From a virus (taxonomy: Duplodnaviria; Caudoviricetes), in IMG/VR virus record IMGVR_UViG_3300026488_000035, positions 1-39,733 of that record: 39,733 bases of DNA. One strand, given 5' to 3'. The translations under genes were made by a program, and so were the position numbers. Below the pieces are notes generated by a model. The model made no database searches, was not told the DNA's origin, and saw only the letters and a list, made by a program, of their open reading frames with translations. Shown here piece by piece: positions 2,941-39,733 of the stretch (positions are counted from its first letter, which is position 1; every line of letters starts with the position of its first letter).

Positions 2941-3083
2941 TTTCGCCTCCCTTTAATGAAATTTAAAGCCGCCCGAAAAGTAGGCTTTATTTTACATCTA
3001 AGCACACTCTCTTCCCATATTACCAAATACTCCTTATAACCAGCTGGTATTATTTTGTACCCGTCCTTTTTAAATAAAACCAT
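2928..3083 (-). CDS. Small hypothetical protein (51 aa, MVLFKKDGYK...), not in the ORF track
   Basis: AAGGA RBS; fills the gap after ssb and overlaps the next start. Confidence 0.55.
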   Translation of the reverse strand: MVLFKKDGYKIIPAGYKEYLVIWEESVLRCKIKPTFRAALNFIKGRRKWKR

Positions 3084-3093
3084 TGTCTATCCT

Positions 3094-3510
3094 TTAAAAT
3101 GGTATTTTATCTTCATCAGTATCATTTGATGGAGCTTGATTTTGATTGTTTTGTTGTGGTTTTTGCTGGTTTTGAGCTTCACTTTTACTATCCATAAATT
3201 GCACCCTCTCAGCAATAACTGAGTGTTTACTTCTTTTTTGACCAAAACTATCCACCCACTGGTCTAAAACAAGCCTTCCCTCAACTAAAACTCTTCTACC
3301 TTTGTTTAAATACTGGTGTGCAACCTCAGCACTTCTACCAAAGACTTTTACATCAATAAACAAAACTTCTTGCTTATTCTCACCAGTTACATTATCTTTA
3401 TAAACTCTATTTACTGCAAGGGGAAAATTCCCAGCAGCTACTCCGCTTGGAGTATATCTTAACTCTACATCACGGGTAAGGTTGCCTATTAAGATTACTT
3501 TATTGAACAT
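3094..3510 (-). CDS. ssb: Single-stranded DNA-binding protein
   Basis: MFNKVILIGNLTRDVELRY start, OB-fold motifs, acidic DEDKIPF tail; start reassigned to ATG 3510. Confidence 0.95.
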   Translation of the reverse strand: MFNKVILIGNLTRDVELRYTPSGVAAGNFPLAVNRVYKDNVTGENKQEVLFIDVKVFGRSAEVAHQYLNKGRRVLVEGRLVLDQWVDSFGQKRSKHSVIAERVQFMDSKSEAQNQQKPQQNNQNQAPSNDTDEDKIPF

Positions 3511-4139: not shown

Positions 4140-5159
4140 TTAAAAAGGGAGACTTTCCTCAAAATTTTCCAAAACCACCTCCGCTTCTGTTTGTTGCGCT
4201 TGTGGAGGAAAGATTTCATCTAGGTAGATTTTATCTATCCAAGGCTCCCCAAGTCTATCTTTATCACATACTAGGAGCCTTACATCTTTGCGGGGAATAA
4301 GCCTACCCATTTCATCTCTTTTTGGCTTGCCTTTCTCATCTGCTTCATACACGAAGCCTAAGCCTAATACGATGTCAGCATCATATTTCTGGTCCCCGCT
4401 TTCCTTTAATATAATCCTGTTTTCTTTAATAGCTTCCTCACTAAGCTGGTTAATAAGAATAATAGTTACCCCTAACTTAATCACTAGCTCGGATAGAGTT
4501 TTAGAGATTTTACTTGCAAGTTCTTTATTGTTTGCAGCAGGAGCGGTTATCTTCATTCTACTATCTATAATAAAAAACCTAACCCCTTCTTTGTAAGCAA
4601 GGATTTTTATAGTTCTAACTAAGTCTTCTAAATCCGCACTTATATCCTCAGGGATAATGAGGTTGTTTAATTGCTGCTCTGTTACATTAATAGCCATTTT
4701 AGAGTAAAGCCTATGCAATATAAGCTCACTCATTTCATAATTAAAGTGAGCTACTTTTTCTTTTCTTGCAATATTTAAAGCTATCCTCATCATTGTAGTA
4801 GTTTTACCTGCATAACTTGCCGCTGCAAATTGTATCATTACTCCAACGGGAATGCCTCCCATGTGCTTATCTATTGCCATAATGCCGCTTTGCACTCTCT
4901 CGGCTTCTTTTATCTCTTTTTTGAGGAAGTTTTTAAGGGTAAGGAATTTAACACTATCCCCAGCCTCTACTTTCTCTATATAATCAAGCTGGGCTTTTAA
5001 GTATAATTTCTTATACTTTAAAATCTCTTCTACATTCTCCTCTGCTTGTGCTTTTTCTAATAACAACCTGTATAAATCTATCTCCAAGGAGAGTTTTTCA
5101 ATTTCACTCTCCACTCTTTTTAATTTTTCTTTTAACGTTTTAACTTTTTGCTCTAACAT
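4140..5159 (-). CDS. DnaB-like (RecA-fold) replicative helicase, motor domain
   Basis: Walker A AASYAGKT, NYEMS, FFIIDS, INQLS, LKESGDQKYDAD. Confidence 0.85.
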   Translation of the reverse strand: MLEQKVKTLKEKLKRVESEIEKLSLEIDLYRLLLEKAQAEENVEEILKYKKLYLKAQLDYIEKVEAGDSVKFLTLKNFLKKEIKEAERVQSGIMAIDKHMGGIPVGVMIQFAAASYAGKTTTMMRIALNIARKEKVAHFNYEMSELILHRLYSKMAINVTEQQLNNLIIPEDISADLEDLVRTIKILAYKEGVRFFIIDSRMKITAPAANNKELASKISKTLSELVIKLGVTIILINQLSEEAIKENRIILKESGDQKYDADIVLGLGFVYEADEKGKPKRDEMGRLIPRKDVRLLVCDKDRLGEPWIDKIYLDEIFPPQAQQTEAEVVLENFEESLPF

Positions 5160-7110: not shown

Positions 7111-7881
7111 TTACCCCTCCTTTTTGTAGAGGATTATAGCGTCTCCATTACGATTTACATCGTAATAGAGACACTCCCCTATTTTTTCTTCTTGAGAATG
7201 TCCTGCATAATAATATAACTCGCCATTTTTCTTAAAGAACCCTGCTCTACTAGATAGAGCATAGATTATTTTTAATTTTGTGATTTTATGATTTATTAGT
7301 ACAGCGTTATAATCGCCTAATACATAAAGGCACTTTTCGCCCCTGAAAATAGGGGCGGTTATATCCCTGCTATAATTTTGATAATCAAGCTCTTTAAAAT
7401 GAATATTTTTTTCAAAAAGCTTTCTTCTCTCTTCTTTAAGCCTAATCTTTTCTTTTACTACTACATAATTTAAATACCCTTTATTTTCTAGAATATCTTT
7501 TACAACCTCAATTTGAAATCTTTCAAACTCTCCTCTTAATTTTTGTAAGAGGAGAGAATTGATTTTTTCAATTATTGATTTAGGTAGGAATTTATTTTGG
7601 TAGAAGTAATATCCTATTTCAAATATACTATGATTTCTTTTTACAAAAGGATCAATGAAGGAAGCGTAAAACAAATTAATTGCCTCTTCATCGTTTTTCA
7701 ATACAATGCAAGAGAATAATTTATAATTATTTTGTAATTTTTCTTCACCTGCGAAGTCGCTATTATAATCGTGGCTTGTAAAATAATCATTCACGAAGCC
7801 GCCTTTGAAAAAATCCAAAGTAGCTTCTTTATCCGCCACTTTTTTAAAAGCCTCTAAATAAATTTTTTTAATTGTTTCCAT
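7111..7881 (-). CDS. Hypothetical protein
   Basis: 256 aa ORF with AAGGAG RBS. Confidence 0.75.
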   Translation of the reverse strand: METIKKIYLEAFKKVADKEATLDFFKGGFVNDYFTSHDYNSDFAGEEKLQNNYKLFSCIVLKNDEEAINLFYASFIDPFVKRNHSIFEIGYYFYQNKFLPKSIIEKINSLLLQKLRGEFERFQIEVVKDILENKGYLNYVVVKEKIRLKEERRKLFEKNIHFKELDYQNYSRDITAPIFRGEKCLYVLGDYNAVLINHKITKLKIIYALSSRAGFFKKNGELYYYAGHSQEEKIGECLYYDVNRNGDAIILYKKEG

Positions 7882-7924
7882 TTTTTCTCCTTAATTTAAT
7901 TATTTTTCACCCCATCTCCAAACC

Positions 7925-7970
7925 GCTCTCCACCTATAAAGCCTCCGTAGAGACCTTACAGGTAGGGAGC
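7925..7970 (-). promoter_or_regulatory. Intergenic RNA hairpin with c(UACG)g loop
   Basis: CTCCCTACCTGTAAGGTCTC-TACG-GAGGCTTTATAGGTGGAGAG directly after a stop codon. Confidence 0.55.
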
Positions 7971-8155
7971 TATTTTAAAAGCTCCAAAAGCTCCTCTACC
8001 TTAATTCCTAAAAACTCCGCCAGCGGTTTTAAATACTGCGTGGGGAGCTTGTTTGTTTTAAGATAATAATTTAAAGTTTGTCTTTTAATTCCTAAGTAGC
8101 GAGCCACGCTTGCTTGCGTGACCCCTTTTTGTTTAAGATAATCTTTTAACTGCAT
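7970..8155 (-). CDS. Cro/XRE family HTH regulator
   Basis: GVTQASVARYLGIKRQTLNYY...LAEFLGI. Confidence 0.85.
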   Translation of the reverse strand: MQLKDYLKQKGVTQASVARYLGIKRQTLNYYLKTNKLPTQYLKPLAEFLGIKVEELLELLK

Positions 8156-8496
8156 TTTGCCCTCCTTTGTTTTCTTTTTGCTTCTTCTGCTCTAAGCCAA
8201 TATTTTAAAGTCAGCGGGCTTTTATTGCCCGCTAGTTTTATTTCTCTTAAAAATCTACCCCACACCCTGTCTATAAGCTCTTTTGGTGGGGATATTATTA
8301 ACGGATTGTTAAATCCTAAATTATATTCTATTTTCTCAACCTCATCTGCTTTGTATCCACTCAAAAACAACTCCCATAATTCATCTTCAAGCCATTTATC
8401 ATCAATCTCCACCTCAACCTCAAACCTTTTTTTGTCAAGGTTGAGGGGAGATGTGATATAGCACATTTCCTTGATGTCTCTTAATCCCTCAGTCAT
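8146..8496 (-). CDS. Hypothetical protein
   Basis: ORF overlapping both neighbours. Confidence 0.65.
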   Translation of the reverse strand: MTEGLRDIKEMCYITSPLNLDKKRFEVEVEIDDKWLEDELWELFLSGYKADEVEKIEYNLGFNNPLIISPPKELIDRVWGRFLREIKLAGNKSPLTLKYWLRAEEAKRKQRRAKCS

Positions 8497-9110
8497 TCCC
8501 CCACCTCCTCTGTTTTTTGAGGGGAACTGTTTAGTAGCTCCTCCTCTTTTTTGATTTTTTCTAATTTTTTTAGTAAGACATCTTTTGCTTTATAATAGGC
8601 TTCTTCGTTTAACTCATCTACGCTCCCAACTCCAAGCCACTTTAAAAACTTCTTAACATCCGATTTTGTGGCTTGGAGAAGAGATAATATCTCTTCTTTT
8701 TCTTTTTTTGCAATACTTTTCTGTCCGTGAGCGTCATTGTCCTCATCGCTCGCAATACCTACTGCGAGCGAGAGGCCGTAACGCCTTAAATAAGTTAATC
8801 CACTCCCTATGCTTTGATAATCATTCATCCCCCTGAGCTGGTTGTAGGGGGCGGCAACTTTGCTTTCTATAAATTCATCCTCATAAAAGAGAGTGGTAGT
8901 GACCTCTAAAACACCCTCTTTGAAAAAATTTGATGTTTGGATGAAGCTTATTCCGTGCTTAGCAAGCACTCCTCTCACGATTTTCAGCACTTCATCAAGA
9001 GGGGCGTATTTATATCCATACCCCTCTTTTGACTTATTTGCATCTCTCAACTCTGCCTGAGCTTTGGCGAGAGCTGAGGTTAGTTTTGAGATATTATTGC
9101 TTCTACTCAT
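8493..9110 (-). CDS. ERF family single-strand annealing protein
   Basis: YKYAPLDEV and QSIGSGLTYLRRYGLSLAVGIASDEDND motifs. Confidence 0.92.
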   Translation of the reverse strand: MSRSNNISKLTSALAKAQAELRDANKSKEGYGYKYAPLDEVLKIVRGVLAKHGISFIQTSNFFKEGVLEVTTTLFYEDEFIESKVAAPYNQLRGMNDYQSIGSGLTYLRRYGLSLAVGIASDEDNDAHGQKSIAKKEKEEILSLLQATKSDVKKFLKWLGVGSVDELNEEAYYKAKDVLLKKLEKIKKEEELLNSSPQKTEEVGE

Positions 9111-10288: not shown

Positions 10289-10317
10289 TTACTCTCCTTT
10301 TGCTCCTTTTTTTTGAT

Positions 10318-10366
10318 TTTTTCTTTACATTAAAAAGCTCTAAAAGCTCTTTAATGTAAAGAAAAA
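10318..10366 (-). repeat. Intergenic hairpin family member (TACATTAAA...TTTAATGTA)
   Basis: Imperfect inverted repeat, near-identical to 11516 and 12610. Confidence 0.8.
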
Positions 10367-10378
10367 AGGGAGAGGGGG

Positions 10379-10690: not shown

Positions 10691-10717
10691 CTTTGCTCCT
10701 TTTTCTTGTTTTTCTTG

Positions 10718-10803
10718 TTTTTTTTGTTTTTCTTGATGTAATTGTATAACATTCTTTTACATTTGTCAAGGGATTTTAGACAAAATAGAGAGAAATTTTA
10801 GAA
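10718..10803 (-). promoter_or_regulatory. 86-bp duplicated early promoter, copy 1 (TTGACA-17-TACAAT at 10769-10741)
   Basis: Identical to 13053-13138; near-consensus sigma70 elements with AT-rich upstream region. Confidence 0.85.
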
Positions 10804-11473: not shown

Positions 11474-11515
11474 AGTGGTTGGCACTAAAAATAGAGAGAG
11501 TCTCTTTTCTTGTCT

Positions 11516-11561
11516 TTTCTTTACATTAAAAAACTCCGTAAAGCTCTTTAATGTAGAGAAA
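11516..11561 (-). repeat. Intergenic hairpin family member
   Basis: TTTCTCTACATTAAAGAGCTT-TACG-GAGTTTTTTAATGTAAAGAAA. Confidence 0.8.
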
Positions 11562-11570
11562 GGAGGGCTT

Positions 11571-12590: not shown

Positions 12591-12609
12591 TTCATCTCCT
12601 TTTTGTTTT

Positions 12610-12654
12610 TTTTCTACATTAAAAGACTTCGTAAAAGTCCTTTAATGTAGAAAA
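12610..12654 (-). repeat. Intergenic hairpin family member
   Basis: TTTTCTACATTAAAGGACTTT-TACG-AAGTCTTTTAATGTAGAAAA. Confidence 0.8.
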
Positions 12655-12665
12655 GAAAAGGGAGG

Positions 12666-13034: not shown

Positions 13035-13052
13035 TTTCGCTCCTTTTTTTTA

Positions 13053-13138
13053 TTTTTTTTGTTTTTCTTGATGTAATTGTATAACATTCTTTTACATTTG
13101 TCAAGGGATTTTAGACAAAATAGAGAGAAATTTTAGAA
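13053..13138 (-). promoter_or_regulatory. 86-bp duplicated early promoter, copy 2 (TTGACA-17-TACAAT at 13104-13076)
   Basis: Identical to 10718-10803. Confidence 0.85.
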
Positions 13139-13194: not shown

Positions 13195-13271
13195 TGGTGG
13201 GCGGGGTAGGACTTGAACCTACGACCAATCAGTTATGAGCCGACTGCTCTAACCAGCTGAGCTACCCGCCC
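13195..13271 (-). tRNA. tRNA with CAT anticodon, probably tRNA-Ile2 (lysidine) rather than Met
   Basis: GGGCGGG/CCCGCCC acceptor stem, AGCTCAGCTGGTTAGAGC D-arm, CTCATAA loop, GTTCAAGTC T-loop, encoded CCA; TGGTATAAT promoter at 13299-13291. Confidence 0.95.
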
Positions 13272-16369: not shown

Positions 16370-16395
16370 TTAAACTCCTTTGATTTTTTTTAGTG

Positions 16396-16445
16396 GTAGT
16401 AACCACTTCAAAAAGCTCTAAAAGCTTTTTAAAGTAAGTTACTAC
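16396..16445 (-). repeat. Intergenic hairpin sharing its apex with the 10318 hairpin
   Basis: GTAGTAAC...AAAGCTTTTAGAGCTTTTT...GTTACTAC after a stop codon. Confidence 0.65.
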
Positions 16446-16877
16446 TTACTTAATAAATTGTCCTTTAATTATTGCAACAATTACTACGCTTATAATCAAT
16501 GTTCCAGCCCACCAAAAAACTTTTGCATGTTTTTCTTGTTGTTTTTTTAAGAATTCAATATCTTTTTCAAGTGCGGGGCAGATGCTATTCCGTTCGTTTA
16601 ATATTTTTTCAATATTCATTTTATTTTCTGTTATTTTTCTTTCACATATTCTTTGTTGCTCATCTATTCTAGAATGTAATCTTTTTATTGCTTCTGTATA
16701 TTTATTATCAAGGTTTGATACTCTTTCTAAAATAATTTCCTGCTTTGAGATGCTTTCACTTATTTTTGATAACTGCTTGTTTTGTATTTTGTTTTGCTCT
16801 ACTAACTCATCAAGAGTTTTTTTAATATAATGTATTTCAAGTTCTTGCCTTTCAACTTTCTTTGTTATCTCTTGCAT
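16446..16877 (-). CDS. Coiled-coil protein with C-terminal TM helix (XhlA/holin-like)
   Basis: Heptads then FWWAGTLIISVVIVAII. Confidence 0.55.
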   Translation of the reverse strand: MQEITKKVERQELEIHYIKKTLDELVEQNKIQNKQLSKISESISKQEIILERVSNLDNKYTEAIKRLHSRIDEQQRICERKITENKMNIEKILNERNSICPALEKDIEFLKKQQEKHAKVFWWAGTLIISVVIVAIIKGQFIK

Positions 16878-32242: not shown

Positions 32243-32513
32243 CTGGAAGCTCCTTTTGCTCTGCTGTAATTATCCTAATTCTGCTTTCACTCTTCTCAAA
32301 AAGCTTTGCCAATTCCTTTATGGCTTCACTTCTGCTTCTTCCAATCGCTATCATCTGTTCATAAATATCTCTTATCTCCTGATACTCACTTCTTTTTTTT
32401 CTAAAATAAATCCGCCAACCTCTAAATCTTTTTAAAAACTCTTTAATCTGTTTATCACTTAGCCCGATTTCTTTTAATTCATTTATCACATAAAATTCGT
32501 TTGCCTCTATCAT
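32232..32513 (-). CDS. Mor/C-family late transcription activator
   Basis: FRGWRIYF plus C-terminal HTH IKELAKLFEKSESRIRII. Confidence 0.7.
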   Translation of the reverse strand: MIEANEFYVINELKEIGLSDKQIKEFLKRFRGWRIYFRKKRSEYQEIRDIYEQMIAIGRSRSEAIKELAKLFEKSESRIRIITAEQKELPDGF

Positions 32514-33706
32514 ATCAGCCCCAATTTTAAAGATTTTGTTTTGCCTTGTGCTTTTATTAAAGGTGCAAGTGCGTATCTGATTGCATCAATTGTGTGATTA
32601 TATTTATCTTCAACTTGCGGGAGAATGTCACCAGCTGAGTTCGTTTTGTAACTATATAATCTAAATTCTTCAAGCGTATGTTTGCAATTTGGATTTATGA
32701 TTATCTTTTTAAATTTTTTCATAAATTCAATACCGTCTTCAACGCTTCCTTTCCATTTCTCTACGCCCTCAATTCTTAAGTCAAAGTTTCTTCTTAAATA
32801 GCTAATAGTCTCAGGTCTTGCATTGTCAGCTCTAATTAAGTAATCTTTATAATCTGGTATATGCTTTTTAAAAAATTCAGGCATTTCATCAATTTCAATC
32901 CCGACTCCATACGCTTCATCTGAAATATAAAGATAATCATCTACGATATAAACTCTAACAAGCGCTGTTGGGTCAACTGCAAATCCAAAATCAAGCCCTT
33001 GATATATCTCATCGTTAACAGGCAATATTCCACTCTCAAACTTGTCTTTGAATACTTGCTTATCATCATAGATTAAACACTCGCCCTCCCAGATGTGTTT
33101 GTAATAGTTATAATCAATCTTTTTTAAATACTCCATCTCTTCACGTAAAACATCTGGGAAAAATGGATTATCGTAATAGTTTACTTTTACAACAATTGCA
33201 TTTGGCGGTGGTTTTACCACAAATCTTTGATACGTCTCATCCTCTATAAAGTGTGGATTAAAACTTACCCAAATTTCGCTCCCCTCTTTTCTAATTGTAG
33301 GGATAAGTAAATCCCAACTCTCTTTGCTAACACTCTGAGCCTCTTCTACCCAGCATATATCAATACCTTCTGTTGATTTTATCTCTTGGATATTGTGCCT
33401 AAGTCCTTTAAAGATAAATTCACTTCCAACTCTGCTTCTTATCTCATCTCTTGTAACTATAAAATAATCATTTAATCCCATTTCGTTTATCTGGTCTTTT
33501 AAAAGTTTATGAACGCTATCTTTTATTGAGTTTTGAATTTCACGGGTGCATAAGACTCTTATCTTTTTTTGAACTGCAAGCAGTATTAACACTTTCGCAA
33601 TGTTCCAAGATTTACCACTTCCTCTTCCTCCATAAAAAACCTTATACCTCGCTTTCTTTCCTAAAAGCACGTCTAAAAAAATTTTTGGGATTTTTACTTC
33701 AATCAT
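32510..33706 (-). CDS. terL: Terminase large subunit (PBSX family)
   Basis: GGRGSGKS, WVEEA, SFNP, GLDFG, NHTIDAIRYA. Confidence 0.96.
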   Translation of the reverse strand: MIEVKIPKIFLDVLLGKKARYKVFYGGRGSGKSWNIAKVLILLAVQKKIRVLCTREIQNSIKDSVHKLLKDQINEMGLNDYFIVTRDEIRSRVGSEFIFKGLRHNIQEIKSTEGIDICWVEEAQSVSKESWDLLIPTIRKEGSEIWVSFNPHFIEDETYQRFVVKPPPNAIVVKVNYYDNPFFPDVLREEMEYLKKIDYNYYKHIWEGECLIYDDKQVFKDKFESGILPVNDEIYQGLDFGFAVDPTALVRVYIVDDYLYISDEAYGVGIEIDEMPEFFKKHIPDYKDYLIRADNARPETISYLRRNFDLRIEGVEKWKGSVEDGIEFMKKFKKIIINPNCKHTLEEFRLYSYKTNSAGDILPQVEDKYNHTIDAIRYALAPLIKAQGKTKSLKLGLI

Positions 33707-34052
33707 TTTTCACATCAACTCCAATAACATTAATTACAGGAGCTTGATTTTCGTGTTTAACCTCTAATTTCTCACTCCACCCTCTGTGTTTACCCTTTGT
33801 CTTTAAAAAGAAAATAAGGGAAGTAGTATCCCCATCTTTTATCTTCTTCATAAGCATACTTTCGGCAAAATCAATCAACCCTTCCTGTATGGAGTCTACT
33901 TCTTGTTTAAATTTTTTATCCTTATTAAGCCAATTGTAATAAGTTTGTCTATTGATGCCGACTTGTTTGCAACTTGCACTTATATTTCCGGCTGTTTTTT
34001 CTAAAATTTTTAAAAACATTTTCTTTTTTTCTCTTGTGTATTTTATAGGCAT
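33699..34052 (-). CDS. terS: Terminase small subunit
   Basis: HTH GNISASCKQVGINRQTYYNW, IFFLKTKGKHRGW; upstream of terL. Confidence 0.8.
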   Translation of the reverse strand: MPIKYTREKKKMFLKILEKTAGNISASCKQVGINRQTYYNWLNKDKKFKQEVDSIQEGLIDFAESMLMKKIKDGDTTSLIFFLKTKGKHRGWSEKLEVKHENQAPVINVIGVDVKND

Positions 34053-34109: not shown

Positions 34110-35441
34110 CTAATTTGCATTCTTATACTCACTCCATTTAACTTTTTTGCCGTTTATTTTTATTTCATCTATGCCTGTGTAATCACACCAACGCTGGATA
34201 ATTACTTGTGCATATTTTTCATCTAATTCCATTAATCTTGATTTTCTTTTTAAAATCTCACAAGCTATAAGCGTACTTCCTGCACCTCCGAATAAATCTA
34301 AAACAATCCAACCAATCTGAGATGAGTTAAATATAAATCTACTAACCAATTCAACAGGTTTCATTGTTGGATGTAATTCGCTTATTGTGGGTCTATCATA
34401 TTCGGCTACACTTGTTTTTAATTCATTTTTTAGTTTTTTAATTTCTTTTATTAATTCATCTTTATTCATTTTTTTATAATCTACATCATCATAAATCGTA
34501 GTAAGTGTAAAATCTCTACAGAAATAATGATTTGCACCCTCTTTCCATCCATACAAAATGGGCTCATGCCGCCAATTATAATCTTGTCTTGATAAAGTCG
34601 CACTTTGTTTTGCCCATATTAATACTTGTGAAAATTTAAATCCTGCATCTACAAATGCTTTTGTAAAATTTACTCTTTCCGTATCTGCGTGTGCTACATA
34701 TATAACTGCCCCATTTCTAACAACTTTCATGTAATTCTTAAATACTTTTAATAAAAAATTATAAAACTTATCACTTTCCATATCATCATTTTTTATAGTT
34801 CCTGCCTTTCCTTTTATTGCTACATTGTACGGCGGGTCAGTAAATACCATATCCGCCTTTTCTCCATTCATCAACCTTTTTACATCTTCCTCATTTGTGC
34901 TATCACCACATAAAAGCCTGTGCTCTCCAAGCTCAATCAAATCTCCTCTTTTAATTACGATGTTTTCCTCATCTATTTCAGGCACATCATTGATTTTTTC
35001 ATTATCACTACTTCCCATTACGTCATCAAAATTATCTAAAATATCATTAAGTTCTTCTTTCTCAAACCCTAAAATATTCATATCAAAAGCGATATTATCA
35101 AGCTCTTCTAAATCAATCTTTAACAATTCCTCATCCCAAGGAGATAACTCTGCGAGTGTATTATCGGCAATCCTGTAAGCTTTCACCTGTGTAGGGGTTA
35201 AGTGCTCAGCCCTTAAAATAGAGACTTCTTTATAACCAAGTCTTTTCAGTGCCTCATATCTTCCATGCCCCGCTATTATTACATTATCTTTATCAACTAT
35301 AATAGGGTTTATAACTCCAAACTCTTTTATGCTTCCCATTATCTTTTCTACCTGCTCAGTAGGATGTCTTTTTTGATTATTCACATAAGGTACTAACTTT
35401 TCAAGTTCTATTGTTTCATATTTTAGCTTTTTATCACTCAT
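34110..35441 (-). CDS. ParB/Srx N-terminal domain fused to an N6A/N4C DNA methyltransferase
   Basis: PIIVD...IAGHGR...RIADN; DPPY, HPTMKP, DLFGGAGST. Confidence 0.93.
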   Translation of the reverse strand: MSDKKLKYETIELEKLVPYVNNQKRHPTEQVEKIMGSIKEFGVINPIIVDKDNVIIAGHGRYEALKRLGYKEVSILRAEHLTPTQVKAYRIADNTLAELSPWDEELLKIDLEELDNIAFDMNILGFEKEELNDILDNFDDVMGSSDNEKINDVPEIDEENIVIKRGDLIELGEHRLLCGDSTNEEDVKRLMNGEKADMVFTDPPYNVAIKGKAGTIKNDDMESDKFYNFLLKVFKNYMKVVRNGAVIYVAHADTERVNFTKAFVDAGFKFSQVLIWAKQSATLSRQDYNWRHEPILYGWKEGANHYFCRDFTLTTIYDDVDYKKMNKDELIKEIKKLKNELKTSVAEYDRPTISELHPTMKPVELVSRFIFNSSQIGWIVLDLFGGAGSTLIACEILKRKSRLMELDEKYAQVIIQRWCDYTGIDEIKINGKKVKWSEYKNAN

Positions 35442-35455
35442 TTGAACTCCTTTTT

Positions 35456-36166
35456 TTAGAACTTTGCAATTTTAAATCTCTTATTGATTGTATCTATATA
35501 ATAAGCAACTTCAAAAGGATTTTTAAAATAAGGTGGAGTTACTGCTCCAATCCCGAGCAGTTGACCGGGTGTAATATTATCAGTAGGTATTCGTCTGATT
35601 ATCTCACAATAATCTACTTTCTCTATCTTTGTGCTTTTAATTTTTCCATGCCCTAACTTCCTAAGTCCCCCTATTCCATCTAAATACCTTAACAACCTTG
35701 CTACCATTTCCCCATTTCCTTTTACACAAAAGGTAAGTTTATCAACTAAGTAGATAGTGTAAGGCATATTATAAGATTTAAAAAATCCTCTTTGAGTATC
35801 AATTACTTTTGTGTCACAATATCTTAAAAATTTATCATCAAACCTCTTTCTCCATTTATCAATCGTTTTTCTATCTCCAAGTTTTAAATGAGACGCATAA
35901 AAAACACGTAGGCTTCTACCACCTACCTCAAAAAACTTACTATAAAGAGGTAAATCAACAAAATCAAACTCATTTTCTTCAACAAACACATAATCATCTT
36001 TTAAAGCTCTCTTAATAGCGCAACTCGCTAAAATACCATCAAAAAACAAAAATCCATCTTTTGCAACCACTCCATTCTCTATCTCAAAAGTAATTTTTAG
36101 ATAATCCTCCTTTTTAAGATTTGCAAACTCTTCATTCTGTCTTAATATTTTTTTTCTTCTTGTCAT
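35456..36166 (-). CDS. csf3: Type IV CRISPR-associated Cas5-like protein Csf3
   Basis: FFDGILA, DLPL, FYAS, WRKRFD, GFFKSY, G-rich loop GIGGLRKLGHGKI, RRIP, PPY. Confidence 0.8.
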   Translation of the reverse strand: MTRRKKILRQNEEFANLKKEDYLKITFEIENGVVAKDGFLFFDGILASCAIKRALKDDYVFVEENEFDFVDLPLYSKFFEVGGRSLRVFYASHLKLGDRKTIDKWRKRFDDKFLRYCDTKVIDTQRGFFKSYNMPYTIYLVDKLTFCVKGNGEMVARLLRYLDGIGGLRKLGHGKIKSTKIEKVDYCEIIRRIPTDNITPGQLLGIGAVTPPYFKNPFEVAYYIDTINKRFKIAKF

Positions 36167-36175
36167 TCTTACTCC

Positions 36176-36952
36176 TTAATAATCTAATAATTCTTTATGA
36201 TTTCTTGCTATCCTAAGAAATTCTTGGGGGTAGTGATACCTCAACCAAGCAACCCTCCCCTCACTTGCAAAATTTCTTGGAGTAGCATCGTGATACCTTA
36301 TCTTACGTGGGTCTCCCCATAAATGAGTCCGTCTATAAACATCTATTATCGGAATTTTTCTTGTCAAAAGAAAAGCAAAAACATCATTTGCACTCCATCT
36401 CATTATCGGATTGCAATACCACAACCCTTTTTTATTCTTATCAGCAACTCCAAGCGTTTGGGACCATAAAAATTTTCTTTTTTTGCTTTCTTCTGCTCTA
36501 AGTCCCATAAATACCCCCGAGCTCTGATTTTTTTTATCTCTTATTTCATCAATATATTTTGCTAAATCTTTTAATTGCCAGCTTGAAGCTTCATCAAGCC
36601 TAAAATCTTTTTCAAGGGTATCTCCAAGGTTTCTTAAATCCAACTTAAAGGCATATCTCTCCGCCATCATTTTCAAGTACGGAATATGAAAACTAAAAGC
36701 CCTATCATCACAAATATTAAATAACTCTACCTTATCATTTAACCCCATTTCCCACAAAAGCCCTAATACCGCAGTGCTGTCTTTACCTCCCGAATATGCA
36801 AGGTGCCATTTGGGAAACTTTTTAAAGGCGTCTTCTATTAAAAGTTTCGCCTCTTCTACATTTTCCCAAAATTCTCTTGTCTTAGAATGGAGAATGAAAA
36901 GCCTTTGCCACTTCTCATTCTCTCCATCAAACTTATCAAACCAAAAATCCAT
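36176..36952 (-). CDS. CysH/PAPS reductase-like protein (type IV-B accessory)
   Basis: PP-loop AYSGGKDST, MGLRAEESKKR, NPIMRWSANDVFAFL. Confidence 0.88.
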   Translation of the reverse strand: MDFWFDKFDGENEKWQRLFILHSKTREFWENVEEAKLLIEDAFKKFPKWHLAYSGGKDSTAVLGLLWEMGLNDKVELFNICDDRAFSFHIPYLKMMAERYAFKLDLRNLGDTLEKDFRLDEASSWQLKDLAKYIDEIRDKKNQSSGVFMGLRAEESKKRKFLWSQTLGVADKNKKGLWYCNPIMRWSANDVFAFLLTRKIPIIDVYRRTHLWGDPRKIRYHDATPRNFASEGRVAWLRYHYPQEFLRIARNHKELLDY

Positions 36953-37739
36953 TTTCTTTTAAAAATTCAAGAATTTCATCTTTAAGCTCCTCAATATAAT
37001 TTTTATACACTTCATCATCTTTTAAAGAAATATCAAATTCCACTTTCCCAAGTCCAATAGCTCCTTTACCTCCTATCCTTGCTTCTTTAAACATTAACAT
37101 CAGTCCTCTTTTTAAAACACTCTCATCAAGCTCATTTGCAACCGATAATAAACCAACCCTAAAAGTCATCTCCACCCCTGCTTTTAGCACTTCATATCTA
37201 TACAACATCTGATGTTTATCAGTCTCAACCTCATCCTTATAAGGATAATCATCTCTCCTTGTCCCAAATTCCTCAGATACAACCTCAAACAAATCAATAT
37301 CGCTTTTCACGCCTGTGAATTGTTCAGTTTGTTTAACAATAGGCAACATATCCTCAACAATCAAAGTCCCCGGCAATATAGCATTACCTATTGCGCTTCC
37401 TAATAAATGCAACATAGGAATGTTTTTATAAAATTCTCTTCTCGTTGAAATGTTTATCTTACCATCACTTTTTTTAAGTGCTCCTCCTGAGAAAAGCGTA
37501 TAATAAAAATCTGGTGTTAATGATTTATCACTTATTCCAAGTAAATCTAAATAATCTTTTGCAATCACTCTCCTTAAAATCCCTCTAATAGAATTTGCTG
37601 AAACGATAGGGATATTAAGAGTCTCTCCACCTATCAAATACTCTCTTCTTCTTATTGTTTTATCAATTCCTGCAACCTCATCGCTTCCTGTGTGAATAGG
37701 ACTTAATAATTTCGCCTTCGTATCTACAATGTATCTCAT
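36936..37739 (-). CDS. csf2: Type IV CRISPR-associated Cas7-like backbone protein Csf2
   Basis: LSPIHTG, IPIVSANSIRGILRR, LFSGGAL, TRRDD, QMLYRYEVLKAG, IGGKGAIGLG. Confidence 0.88.
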   Translation of the reverse strand: MRYIVDTKAKLLSPIHTGSDEVAGIDKTIRRREYLIGGETLNIPIVSANSIRGILRRVIAKDYLDLLGISDKSLTPDFYYTLFSGGALKKSDGKINISTRREFYKNIPMLHLLGSAIGNAILPGTLIVEDMLPIVKQTEQFTGVKSDIDLFEVVSEEFGTRRDDYPYKDEVETDKHQMLYRYEVLKAGVEMTFRVGLLSVANELDESVLKRGLMLMFKEARIGGKGAIGLGKVEFDISLKDDEVYKNYIEELKDEILEFLKENGFLV

Positions 37740-37740
37740 T

Positions 37741-38091
37741 TTACGCTCCTTGTCTTATTAATTTTGCTTTAATTAAAAGATATTCAAGTTCTTCTCTTAG
37801 CATTTTCAAAGCCCTTTTATCATCAATATTGCTAAAATCAAACACGCCTTCTTTGTCTTTAAGATAAATATCACTCATCTTTATCCCCAACTTTCTAATA
37901 AGTTTTGAGGTGAAAGTTTTTAAATCTTTTGTATTTAAGCAAGCTTTTACCCTGCTTTGAAACTCACTCTCAAATCCTATTCTATTATGGTCTTTTGGTG
38001 CAGCTGAATATAAAATATTCAAAATCGCCACCAACCTATCCTCTAAGTTCGCCAAATCTAAAACTTTTTGCTCCTCAAATAAATTTTCCAT
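37741..38091 (-). CDS. Cas11-like small subunit of the type IV-B complex
   Basis: 116 aa all-helical protein between csf1 and csf2. Confidence 0.6.
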   Translation of the reverse strand: MENLFEEQKVLDLANLEDRLVAILNILYSAAPKDHNRIGFESEFQSRVKACLNTKDLKTFTSKLIRKLGIKMSDIYLKDKEGVFDFSNIDDKRALKMLREELEYLLIKAKLIRQGA

Positions 38092-38097
38092 ATAAGC

Positions 38098-38214
38098 TCC
38101 TTTTTATTTTGGTCTAACTGCATATACAAGCATATTATACTCTAATGTATTTTTAACTTTTTCAAGTCTTTTTTTGATTGTGAAAAACTCTTCTATCCCA
38201 AATTCTATAACCTT
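38098..38214. repeat. 117-bp exact repeat covering the csf1 3' end
   Basis: Identical to 11-127 (=39617-39733). Confidence 0.9.
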
Positions 38215-38775
38215 TCTTGGATTTGGGTTTAGAGTTAAGATTTCTTCTTTTGTAAAAAAAGTTTTTGGATTTTTTTTGCTCTTCTCTTTTTCTGGTATAG
38301 AATAAAGATTTTGTATATCTTTAAAAACATTTTTCCATCTGTGAGGCTCAAAATAAAATCCTCCCTCATCTGTTTGTATCCAAAATTCCTCTTTATTAAA
38401 AGAAACTTTTCCCTTAAAAAACAAATGTTTTTTCTTTGAATAAGAAAGGTGAAAGAAAAATGGAGGCTCAATTTCTTTTGGAAAATTAAACAAAATATCA
38501 GCAAGTTCTAAGGCTGTAAACCTTAGAAATCCTTTTTCGTGAAAAATTGCAGACATTTTTCTAACTGAATTTTCTTTTCTATCTGTTAAAACAAATTCAC
38601 ACGCCTCGCAAACGCCTTCCCCTTTTTGTAGATAATCTAAATCTGTAAATGTATTTTTTATTACCTTTTTTAGATTTTTAGGTGCCGGAGATTTACAAAA
38701 AACACATTTAGTTTCTCCTTTAAAAAGGGGCTCTCTTTGCAATAAGGACTTATAAATTAAATGACTCGGATACAT
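38104..38775 (-). CDS. csf1: Type IV CRISPR-associated Cas8-like large subunit Csf1
   Basis: CVFC...FTDLDYL...CEAC zinc finger, PPF, KKH; AAGGAG RBS favours ATG 38775. Confidence 0.78.
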   Translation of the reverse strand: MYPSHLIYKSLLQREPLFKGETKCVFCKSPAPKNLKKVIKNTFTDLDYLQKGEGVCEACEFVLTDRKENSVRKMSAIFHEKGFLRFTALELADILFNFPKEIEPPFFFHLSYSKKKHLFFKGKVSFNKEEFWIQTDEGGFYFEPHRWKNVFKDIQNLYSIPEKEKSKKNPKTFFTKEEILTLNPNPRKVIEFGIEEFFTIKKRLEKVKNTLEYNMLVYAVRPK

Positions 38776-38795
38776 TTTCACTCCTTAAAAAATAT

Positions 38796-38914
38796 TTATA
38801 AAGAAAAGCTTAACTTAGTCTCTAAGATTTTAATTTGCTTTATAAAACCCCTCTTGTAGTAAGAAGAACAGGCAGTACTATCTTTCCCGCCTGAAATGCC
38901 TCTTCTCTTGTCAT
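38796..38914 (-). pseudogene. Frameshifted remnant of a second PP-loop/PAPS reductase-like gene
   Basis: ATG at 38914 with AAGGA RBS; alternate frame reads GISGGKDSTAC (motif 38874-38894), stop at 38796. Confidence 0.6.
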
Positions 38915-38964
38915 TTTGTTTTCCTTTATTAATTAAATTCAACTAGATAATTAAGTTTAACTAA

Positions 38965-39485: not shown

Positions 39486-39611
39486 TTAATTAACATTCAC
39501 CGAGCAGTTTTTAAAACAATACATCGCACCAATTCTTGTGTCGTCTTCCACTATTCTTTTTTTTAATTTTATCTTTTGTAGTTTTTTCTGTTTTGTGTTT
39601 TGTTTAGTCAT
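39486..39611 (-). CDS. Small basic hypothetical protein (41 aa), not in the ORF track
   Basis: AAGGA RBS; CxxxC; fills the gap. Confidence 0.4.
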   Translation of the reverse strand: MTKQNTKQKKLQKIKLKKRIVEDDTRIGAMYCFKNCSVNVN

Positions 39612-39733
39612 TTTTATCCTTTTTATTTTGGTCTAACTGCATATACAAGCATATTATACTCTAATGTATTTTTAACTTTTTCAAGTCTTTTTTTGATTGT
39701 GAAAAACTCTTCTATCCCAAATTCTATAACCTT
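39607..39733. repeat. Terminal direct repeat, right copy
   Basis: Identical to 1-127. Confidence 0.95.

Follow-up and report, generated by a model that had tools for sequence, protein, structure and literature searches.

What does a small tailed phage gain from the subunits of a CRISPR effector complex when its genome holds no CRISPR array, and why is the gene for a CysH-like enzyme coupled to them? The question is raised by an operon in IMG/VR virus record IMGVR_UViG_3300026488_000035 (Duplodnaviria; Caudoviricetes), a DNA of 39,733 nucleotides (nt) that was analysed in its full length and is called the window in what follows. From their sequences, the five genes of this operon are predicted to encode a type IV-B Csf1-Cas11-Csf2-Csf3 complex together with a CysH-like PP-loop enzyme. 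The answer that we favour, with a confidence that stays somewhat below even, is that the Csf complex serves as a scaffold for an enzyme that modifies nucleic acid, probably the DNA of the phage itself, so as to shield it from the defences of the host.

Loci of subtype IV-B have been described as array-less, linked to CysH and sometimes residing in prophages, and both sponge and epigenetic hypotheses have been put forward for them (PMC7038947, PMC8175902, PMC11656645). Their function is left open in PMC12669027 and PMC13676074, the latter of which calls it unclear in September 2026. An earlier reading of the window, here called the original prediction, had suggested that a repurposed machine guides the CysH-like enzyme to nucleic acids or, alternatively, sequesters host CRISPR RNAs (crRNAs). 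Both ideas were already in print (PMC8175902, PMC7038947). The first gains comparative support below, from enzyme swaps and from linkage to modification genes, and loses its claim to originality. An array-less IV-B operon in a virus is already known, as is the sponge idea; what is added here is a further member and the clue provided by the enzyme swaps.

The Operon and Its Subtype

The stretch from 35456 to 38781 is filled by five minus-strand open reading frames (ORFs), separated by 12, 1, −17 (an overlap) and 9 nt:

38104..38781, minus strand: csf1, Cas8-like large subunit with zinc finger (TIGR03114, E 6e-10; GTG start)
37741..38091, minus strand: cas11-like small subunit (hidden Markov model [HMM] of 40 viral small subunits, E 6e-16)
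36936..37739, minus strand: csf2, Cas7 backbone RAMP protein (TIGR03115, 1.5e-17)
36176..36952, minus strand: CasCysH-type PP-loop enzyme with the motif SGGKDST (PF01507, PAPS_reduct, 9e-15)
35456..36166, minus strand: csf3, Cas5-like RAMP protein (TIGR03116, 2.2e-17)

The five tightly coupled genes that had been read from the sequence are thus recovered, and the ORF coordinates agree with a cysH-like gene placed between csf2 and csf3 and overlapping csf2 by 17 nt. For csf1, the ATG at 38775, which stands behind an AGGAG site, is a likelier start than the GTG at 38781, and it is also where the original prediction let the operon end. The motifs noted before are all present: Cys26, Cys29, Cys58 and Cys61 of the zinc finger and the PPF motif in the 225 amino acids (aa) of Csf1, glycine-rich RAMP loops at the C-termini of Csf2 and Csf3, and the PP-loop.

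The NCBIfam scores of Csf1, Csf2 and Csf3 all lie under the curated cut-offs; the Pfam matches over cut-off are PAPS_reduct (9e-15) and RAMPs (3e-6). Solved type IV subunits are matched by all four Cas proteins of the operon. The Csf1 profile matches the Csf1 chains 8rc3_G (8e-7) and 7xfz_A (2e-5), the Csf2 profile matches Cas7c 11fs_C (4e-40) and the IV-B Csf2 of 7jhy (1e-38), and the Csf3 profile matches Csf3 7xfz_B (2e-17). The structure model of Csf2 (pLDDT 93) has the type IV Csf2 fold, with type IV Csf2 chains ranked first by Foldseek, Csm3 after them, and a root-mean-square deviation of 3.5 Å to 7jhy_a. The cas11-like gene has no family match in the Pfam and NCBIfam scans. Its protein is recognised by the small-subunit HMM, which was built without it, and the family profile that includes it matches Cas11c 11fs_N at 7e-4, in line with the helical small subunit described earlier. 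The profile check proposed with the original prediction therefore gave matches to all four families, Csf1, Csf2, Csf3 and Cas11.

The CysH-like protein has two cysteines only (Cys81 and Cys180) and lacks the C-terminal cysteine motif ECG. A bona fide PAPS/APS reductase (CysH) was rejected, both on the missing ECG and on a TIGR00434 score of 16.8 bits versus a cut-off of 165, and so was DndC (28 bits versus a cut-off of 290, no C-terminal cysteine motif). A PP-loop fold without this motif is what characterises CasCysH (PMC8175902). The 13 best-ranked viral relatives of the protein all adjoin csf2 and csf3.

The window is one circular contig, in which positions 1-127 repeat 39607-39733, and this bears out the earlier view of an apparently complete genome. 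Read from the translations, its genes are those of a long-tailed phage (for terminase, portal-like, capsid-like and tape-measure-like proteins, endolysin, replication and recombination), with PHROGs matches to endolysin, terS and thymidylate synthase. No CRISPR array was found in it by repeat search, mini-array scan or Rfam, which returned a tRNA only. In genome bin G000, of which the window is contig C40, the profile matches to cas1 are all on other contigs. Neither cas2, cas6 nor dinG was seen among the translations of the main ORFs, judged by reading and without a profile scan of every ORF; likewise, the genes flanking the locus include no helicase (dinG/recD) and no cas6, the rest of the genome having been read by eye. 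The earlier statement that these components are missing is upheld, and the window holds no cognate array with cas6.

From this follows the subtype. The absence of dinG, cas6/csf5 and a CRISPR array from the window rules out type IV-A. Type IV-C, where a large subunit that resembles Cas10 and has an HD nuclease replaces Csf1, is ruled out because a 225-aa Csf1 is found instead; its alignment with Cas10IVc is confined to the zinc-finger stretch (Cas10IVc 375-427). The matches to type IV subunits and the CasCysH features assign the locus to subtype IV-B, as had been predicted. In the Csf2 tree, built without curated IV-A and IV-C references and weakly supported in its deep branches, the window stands among CysH-associated loci that include Skermania phage SPI1 and plasmid examples. 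The locus is a real, intact and complete new member of IV-B with ordinary architecture; family-invariant residues are retained, the five frames are intact, and there are orthologues at 60-76% identity.

The same five genes, again without array, cas6 or helicase and with a PP-motif CysH that lacks the catalytic cysteine, make up the IV-B system of Mycobacterium sp. JS623 (PDB 7JHY). That system resides on an actinobacterial plasmid, whereas the window is a 39.7-kb tailed phage; its Csf2 belongs to a divergent clade, with nearest relatives at 60-69% identity and the next at 42% or less, and its cysH precedes csf3. The top structural-database matches of the window's Cas7 and Cas11 profiles are to subtype IV-C (PDB 11FS; PMC13676074). 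Among viruses, Mp_virus_41kb_42_49_complete of Methanoperedens (10.1101/2023.08.02.551345) is similar in being a complete virus, of ~41 kb, with csf1, cas11, csf2, csf3, a non-canonical cysH and no array; its host is archaeal, and the likeness is drawn from its description only. The Fuxiviridae IV-B operon (PMC10848311) is also virus-encoded with a CysH-like gene and differs by a mini-array, while the IV-B operon of phage SPI1 (Orf40-44) has its CysH-like gene in the order csf2-csf3-cysH.

Related Operons in Other Viruses

When clustered at 50%, the relatives of Csf2 number 862. Viral contigs were scanned four times, which gave 196 csf2 loci (in two of the scans the 80 best were retained, out of 94 and out of 132), many of them one contig fetched repeatedly, and these reduce to 82 clusters at 70% identity, with genes called by a custom ORF script and HMMs. 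The order csf1-csf2-csf3-cysH is commonest (36/82). That of the window, csf1-csf2-cysH-csf3, is found in 18 clusters, which refutes the novelty of gene order that the original prediction had implied.

A cysH-like gene is present in 70 of the 82 clusters. Three of the 12 without CasCysH are interrupted by contig ends. Another four have a protein of the TGT/DpdA fold in the operon, between csf2 and csf3 in L038, L067 and L198 and after csf3 in L173, and two have a Rossmann methyltransferase-like protein between csf2 and csf3 (L205, RrnaAD at 3e-6; L039, weak). In the last three there is a radical SAM protein, IbrAB and nothing identified, respectively. The TGT-like protein of L198 matches TGT and DpdA clusters in the Atlas at TM 0.74-0.75, and that of L038 matches phrog_887 with E 0.007. 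The motifs LDSGA and DSxDSI, in which the catalytic aspartates presumably lie, are invariant among these TGT-like proteins. When the six whole TGT and methyltransferase records (completeness 29-100%, one complete) were searched with the CysH profile, none matched, as against five of five positive controls. The four TGT and two methyltransferase loci take separate places in a FastTree phylogeny of Csf2, and from this scatter it follows that the enzyme swap recurs.

Modification genes are linked to the operons as well. Of the 15 clusters with IbrA, 14 have it within the operon or at most 2 kb away; for IbrB/ParB the figure is 20 of 23. This near-operon zone makes up 56% of the bases, and the enrichment has p ~0.002 for either gene, with clusters that are kin and not independent; in an unmatched background of 50,697 isolate phage records, 136 contain IbrA. 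A scan of 97 neighbours and a PHROGs scan of 27 proteins further placed GT2 (three clusters), SpoU (three), GNAT (three), TAGT (one) and glucosyltransferase (one) genes in or adjoining the operons, and N6/N4 or D12 methyltransferase genes are also among the neighbours. Phage modification cassettes of the IbrA/IbrB type (a DUF3440 PAPS-reductase-like protein with ParB) and of the DpdA/TGT type thus interleave with CasCysH, or replace it, in related loci. Intact genes of either type are absent from the operon of the window; a PP-loop remnant and a ParB-methyltransferase gene, both described below, are present.

An array occurs within the fetched flanks of one cluster (L035, type I-C-like, ~3.5 kb downstream of csf2), as judged by a finder that required perfect repeats of at least 22 nt; two further matches were judged not to be arrays. 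The gene cas6 is found in two clusters. Upstream of csf1 in L102 and L193 there are identical 19-20-nt repeat pairs, 71 and 76 nt apart, which are possible mini-arrays. No close relatives with DNA context were found: csf2 occurs in none of six same-family genomes, and a distant csf2 in 7 of 400 genomes of the class.

Two observations concern the subunits themselves. P0006, L031, L044 and about 15 other clusters have long Csf2 forms: in one clade Cas11 is inserted into the N-terminal part of Csf2, giving ~400 aa (hhalign 99.2%), and the others are apparent N-terminal fusions; these would be single-chain Cas7-Cas11 versions of type IV-B. On the Thermococcus nautili plasmid NZ_OX281346.1 (L008), the gene at 7857-8600, which bears the annotation Cas6, matches Csf3 of the window with E 3e-7; the operon there is of type IV-B and thus carried by a plasmid of an archaeon.

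A Proposed Scaffold for a Modifying Enzyme

Three genes follow the operon on the same strand, the first of them 14 nt after csf3:

34110..35441, minus strand: ParB-N domain fused to an N6/N4 DNA methyltransferase (PF01555, 2e-30; PF02195, 7e-7; phrog_498, 9e-159)
33699-34052, minus strand: terS (phrog_309, 5e-12)
32510-33706, minus strand: terL, after terS

These genes are likely to share a transcript with the csf operon. What the sequences show is the identity and coupling of the genes, the missing array and the pattern among relatives; the chain of events that follows, from assembly of the complex to its benefit for the phage, is our proposal. Csf2 and Cas11 build a filament that binds RNA, and the RNA bound in 7JHY was heterogeneous and non-CRISPR (PMC8175902). 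To carry this over to the window, consider a Csf filament that would assemble and load RNA not derived from an array. The RNA-loaded complex would present nucleic acid, most likely phage DNA, to the modifying enzyme. As the first modification step, the cysteine-less PP-loop enzyme would spend ATP to adenylate a base, a phosphate or a small donor, and its slot would be exchangeable for other enzymes that modify nucleic acids. Co-expression with the ParB-methyltransferase just ahead of the packaging genes would mark the progeny DNA before it is encapsidated. A constant Cas part is combined with an exchangeable enzyme, and the families exchanged act on nucleobases; most simply read, this points to a scaffold that offers nucleic acid up for modification. 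In the window, the DNA methyltransferase gene 14 nt beyond csf3 and a PP-loop remnant ahead of csf1 also speak for this reading.

A wider reading, which we regard as doubtful, is that phage IV-B operons at large could be widespread Cas-derived writers of nucleic acid, Cascade-like RNPs which have a plug-in enzyme slot and place modifications at RNA-specified sites. That the plug-in enzymes would be a PP-loop adenylating enzyme, a TGT/DpdA-like base exchanger and a methyltransferase is a part of this reading that we hold just as hesitantly. A literature search of partial coverage returned no paper on the TGT/methyltransferase swap, by which absence from print is not established; nor did this partial search return anything on phage DNA modification by IbrA and IbrB or on phage hypermodification by PAPS reductase and ParB.

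Several results weigh against a scaffold that marks phage DNA. The deep branches of the Csf2 tree are weakly supported. Among the loci seeded with CysH (L215-L272), IbrA occurs without csf2 in 28 of 58; phages commonly have IbrAB and glycosyltransferase cassettes as modules that stand alone, and a shared insertion hotspot may have brought them to the operons. Terminase genes are not enriched near the operon (17/30 in the near zone, p 0.57), so that a general link to packaging genes was rejected and the link is limited to the window. Short blastn of the ~350-nt flanks of the 82 operons, a search that divergent structured RNAs escape, found no conserved non-coding element or guide RNA, and an RNA guide is therefore unsupported. 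DNA is not singled out as the substrate, because the members of the SpoU family methylate RNA and the substrate of TGT can be either RNA or DNA. The spacers against the phage described in the next section, finally, would fit any counter-defence role.

Possible Host Community and Rearrangement of the Locus

The bin that contains the window also contains an array of 18 repeats, three cas1 genes and ORFs that resemble csm3/4/5. Of the 17 spacers of this array, none matches the phage better than shuffles do, and no copy of the host repeat is present in the phage (best match 22/36). The sole run with the complete window sequence is X1, whose label reads hydrothermal vent metagenome and from which the window may have come; another run, X2 (share 0.07), has short window pieces only. 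In X1, among the best six loose ends per table, the phage stretch 33033-33068 (a protospacer preceded by CCA, plus strand) and one ending near 4731 are bordered by repeats much like the one at the start of bin contig C10. Phage stretches joined to CRISPR-like repeats suggest that the phage is a CRISPR target in the X1 community, which fits the binning and is no proof of the host. Between the phage ssb gene (3080-3510) and part of bin contig C27 there is 88.5% identity, which supports a host link. The bin also has a second circular contig, C25, of 9,514 bp with a 127-nt terminal overlap.

Signs of rearrangement are found at the csf1 end of the operon:

38796..38942, minus strand: 48-codon frame upstream of csf1, with the motif SGGKDST at 38874-38894 (from its translation; CysH HMM, E 4.6e-5 in a search of four sequences only)
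38097-38214: csf1 3' end and 3' flank, repeated directly and identically over 118 nt at 39616..39733, equal to 10-127 at the circular junction

The 48-codon frame is likely a remnant of a second PP-loop gene, IbrA- or CysH-like. The circle was opened by the assembler exactly at the 118-nt repeat. A pure assembly artefact is unlikely, since the 117-nt repeat unitig has a depth of 957 in X1, compared with 479-495 for its neighbours. The repeats bracket a 1.5-kb segment that comprises the 5' part of csf1 and three small ORFs. Recombination between the two copies would delete most of csf1, so that the arrangement might act as a switch, or it might be what a recent insertion left behind. Upstream of csf1, 149 nt have an unremarkable fold (z −1.7), and a promoter scan gave no excess (26 versus 25.2 in shuffles).

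Elsewhere in the window there are four related long intergenic hairpins (10308-10370, 11505-11567, 12599-12661 and 16386-16448; z −2.9 to −7.2), three of which directly precede minus-strand ribosome-binding sites and which show apparent compensating changes; we take them to resemble RNase III processing sites. A 104-nt repeat pair (10700-10803 and 13035-13138) has the appearance of a promoter module that was duplicated, and Rfam places a tRNA gene at 13198-13271 on the minus strand.

Alternative Explanations

Sequestration would make the operon an anti-CRISPR sponge, in which the filament of Csf2 and Cas11 would capture the crRNAs of the host and so keep them from its Cascade or Csm, while the CysH-like enzyme would be an accessory or mark the captured RNA. 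The cas1 genes, csm-like ORFs and array of the bin, together with the apparent targeting of the phage in X1, fit such a function, which has been proposed in PMC8175902 and, for the IV-B operon of the Methanoperedens virus, in 10.1101/2023.08.02.551345. The near-constant enzyme partner (70/82) and its replacement by TGT- or methyltransferase-like proteins are, however, left unexplained by a sponge. The operon also stands after the replication genes and directly before packaging, outside the hairpin-punctuated region, which from gene order looks early. The 7JHY complex moreover showed no preference for co-expressed crRNAs (PMC8175902), and PMC7038947 terms the idea unlikely, a judgement that we share. 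Were crRNAs processed by the host, or an unrecognised small RNA of the phage, to direct the complex to complementary DNA, it could silence genes or compete with other mobile elements in the manner of type IV-A. Csf1 and Csf3 retain similarity to IV-A subunits, there is an array in one cluster and cas6 in two, and a mini-array adjoins the IV-B locus of a Bathyarchaeia virus (PMC10848311). The window itself, in contrast, has neither array nor mini-array, no copy of the host repeat and no match above shuffles to the 17 host spacers, and guided silencing is in our view quite improbable.

The enzyme might instead be delivered to RNA or protein of host or phage, for example to adenylate, or swap bases in, a tRNA or the bound RNA, or to act on a host defence protein. 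PP-loop and TGT pairs modify proteins in CBASS. The CysH profile has a weak match to Cap9 (E 3.5e-4), RNA modification is where the TGT fold and SpoU-family genes, the latter present at three clusters, are typically met, and the IV-B filament resembles the RNA-targeting Csm complex (PMC7937560). Yet DNA is indicated by the neighbouring genes (IbrAB/ParB, TAGT, GT2, and methyltransferases of the N6/N4 or D12 kind), and the closest Cas7 and Cas11 structures belong to IV-C, a dsDNA recogniser (PMC13676074). All told, a substrate other than DNA seems to us improbable, at much the level of the sponge. The 118-nt duplication and the PP-loop remnant, as marks of recent rearrangement, would also fit a decaying or newly rearranged passenger without current function. 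Five intact, coupled frames with invariant residues kept and orthologues at 60-76% identity speak so strongly against decay that we consider it very improbable.

Implications

The locus is a clean model for IV-B, with all five genes together in a phage genome that is small, complete and apparently targeted by CRISPR in its likely source sample. The enzyme swaps in its relatives recast the IV-B puzzle as one of chemistry, in which an ATP-dependent adduct would be expected here and base exchange in TGT-type loci. If phage IV-B operons are indeed writers, this compact and complete phage would be a minimal test case, and if the complex is RNA-programmable, it would be a natural guided modifier of nucleic acids.

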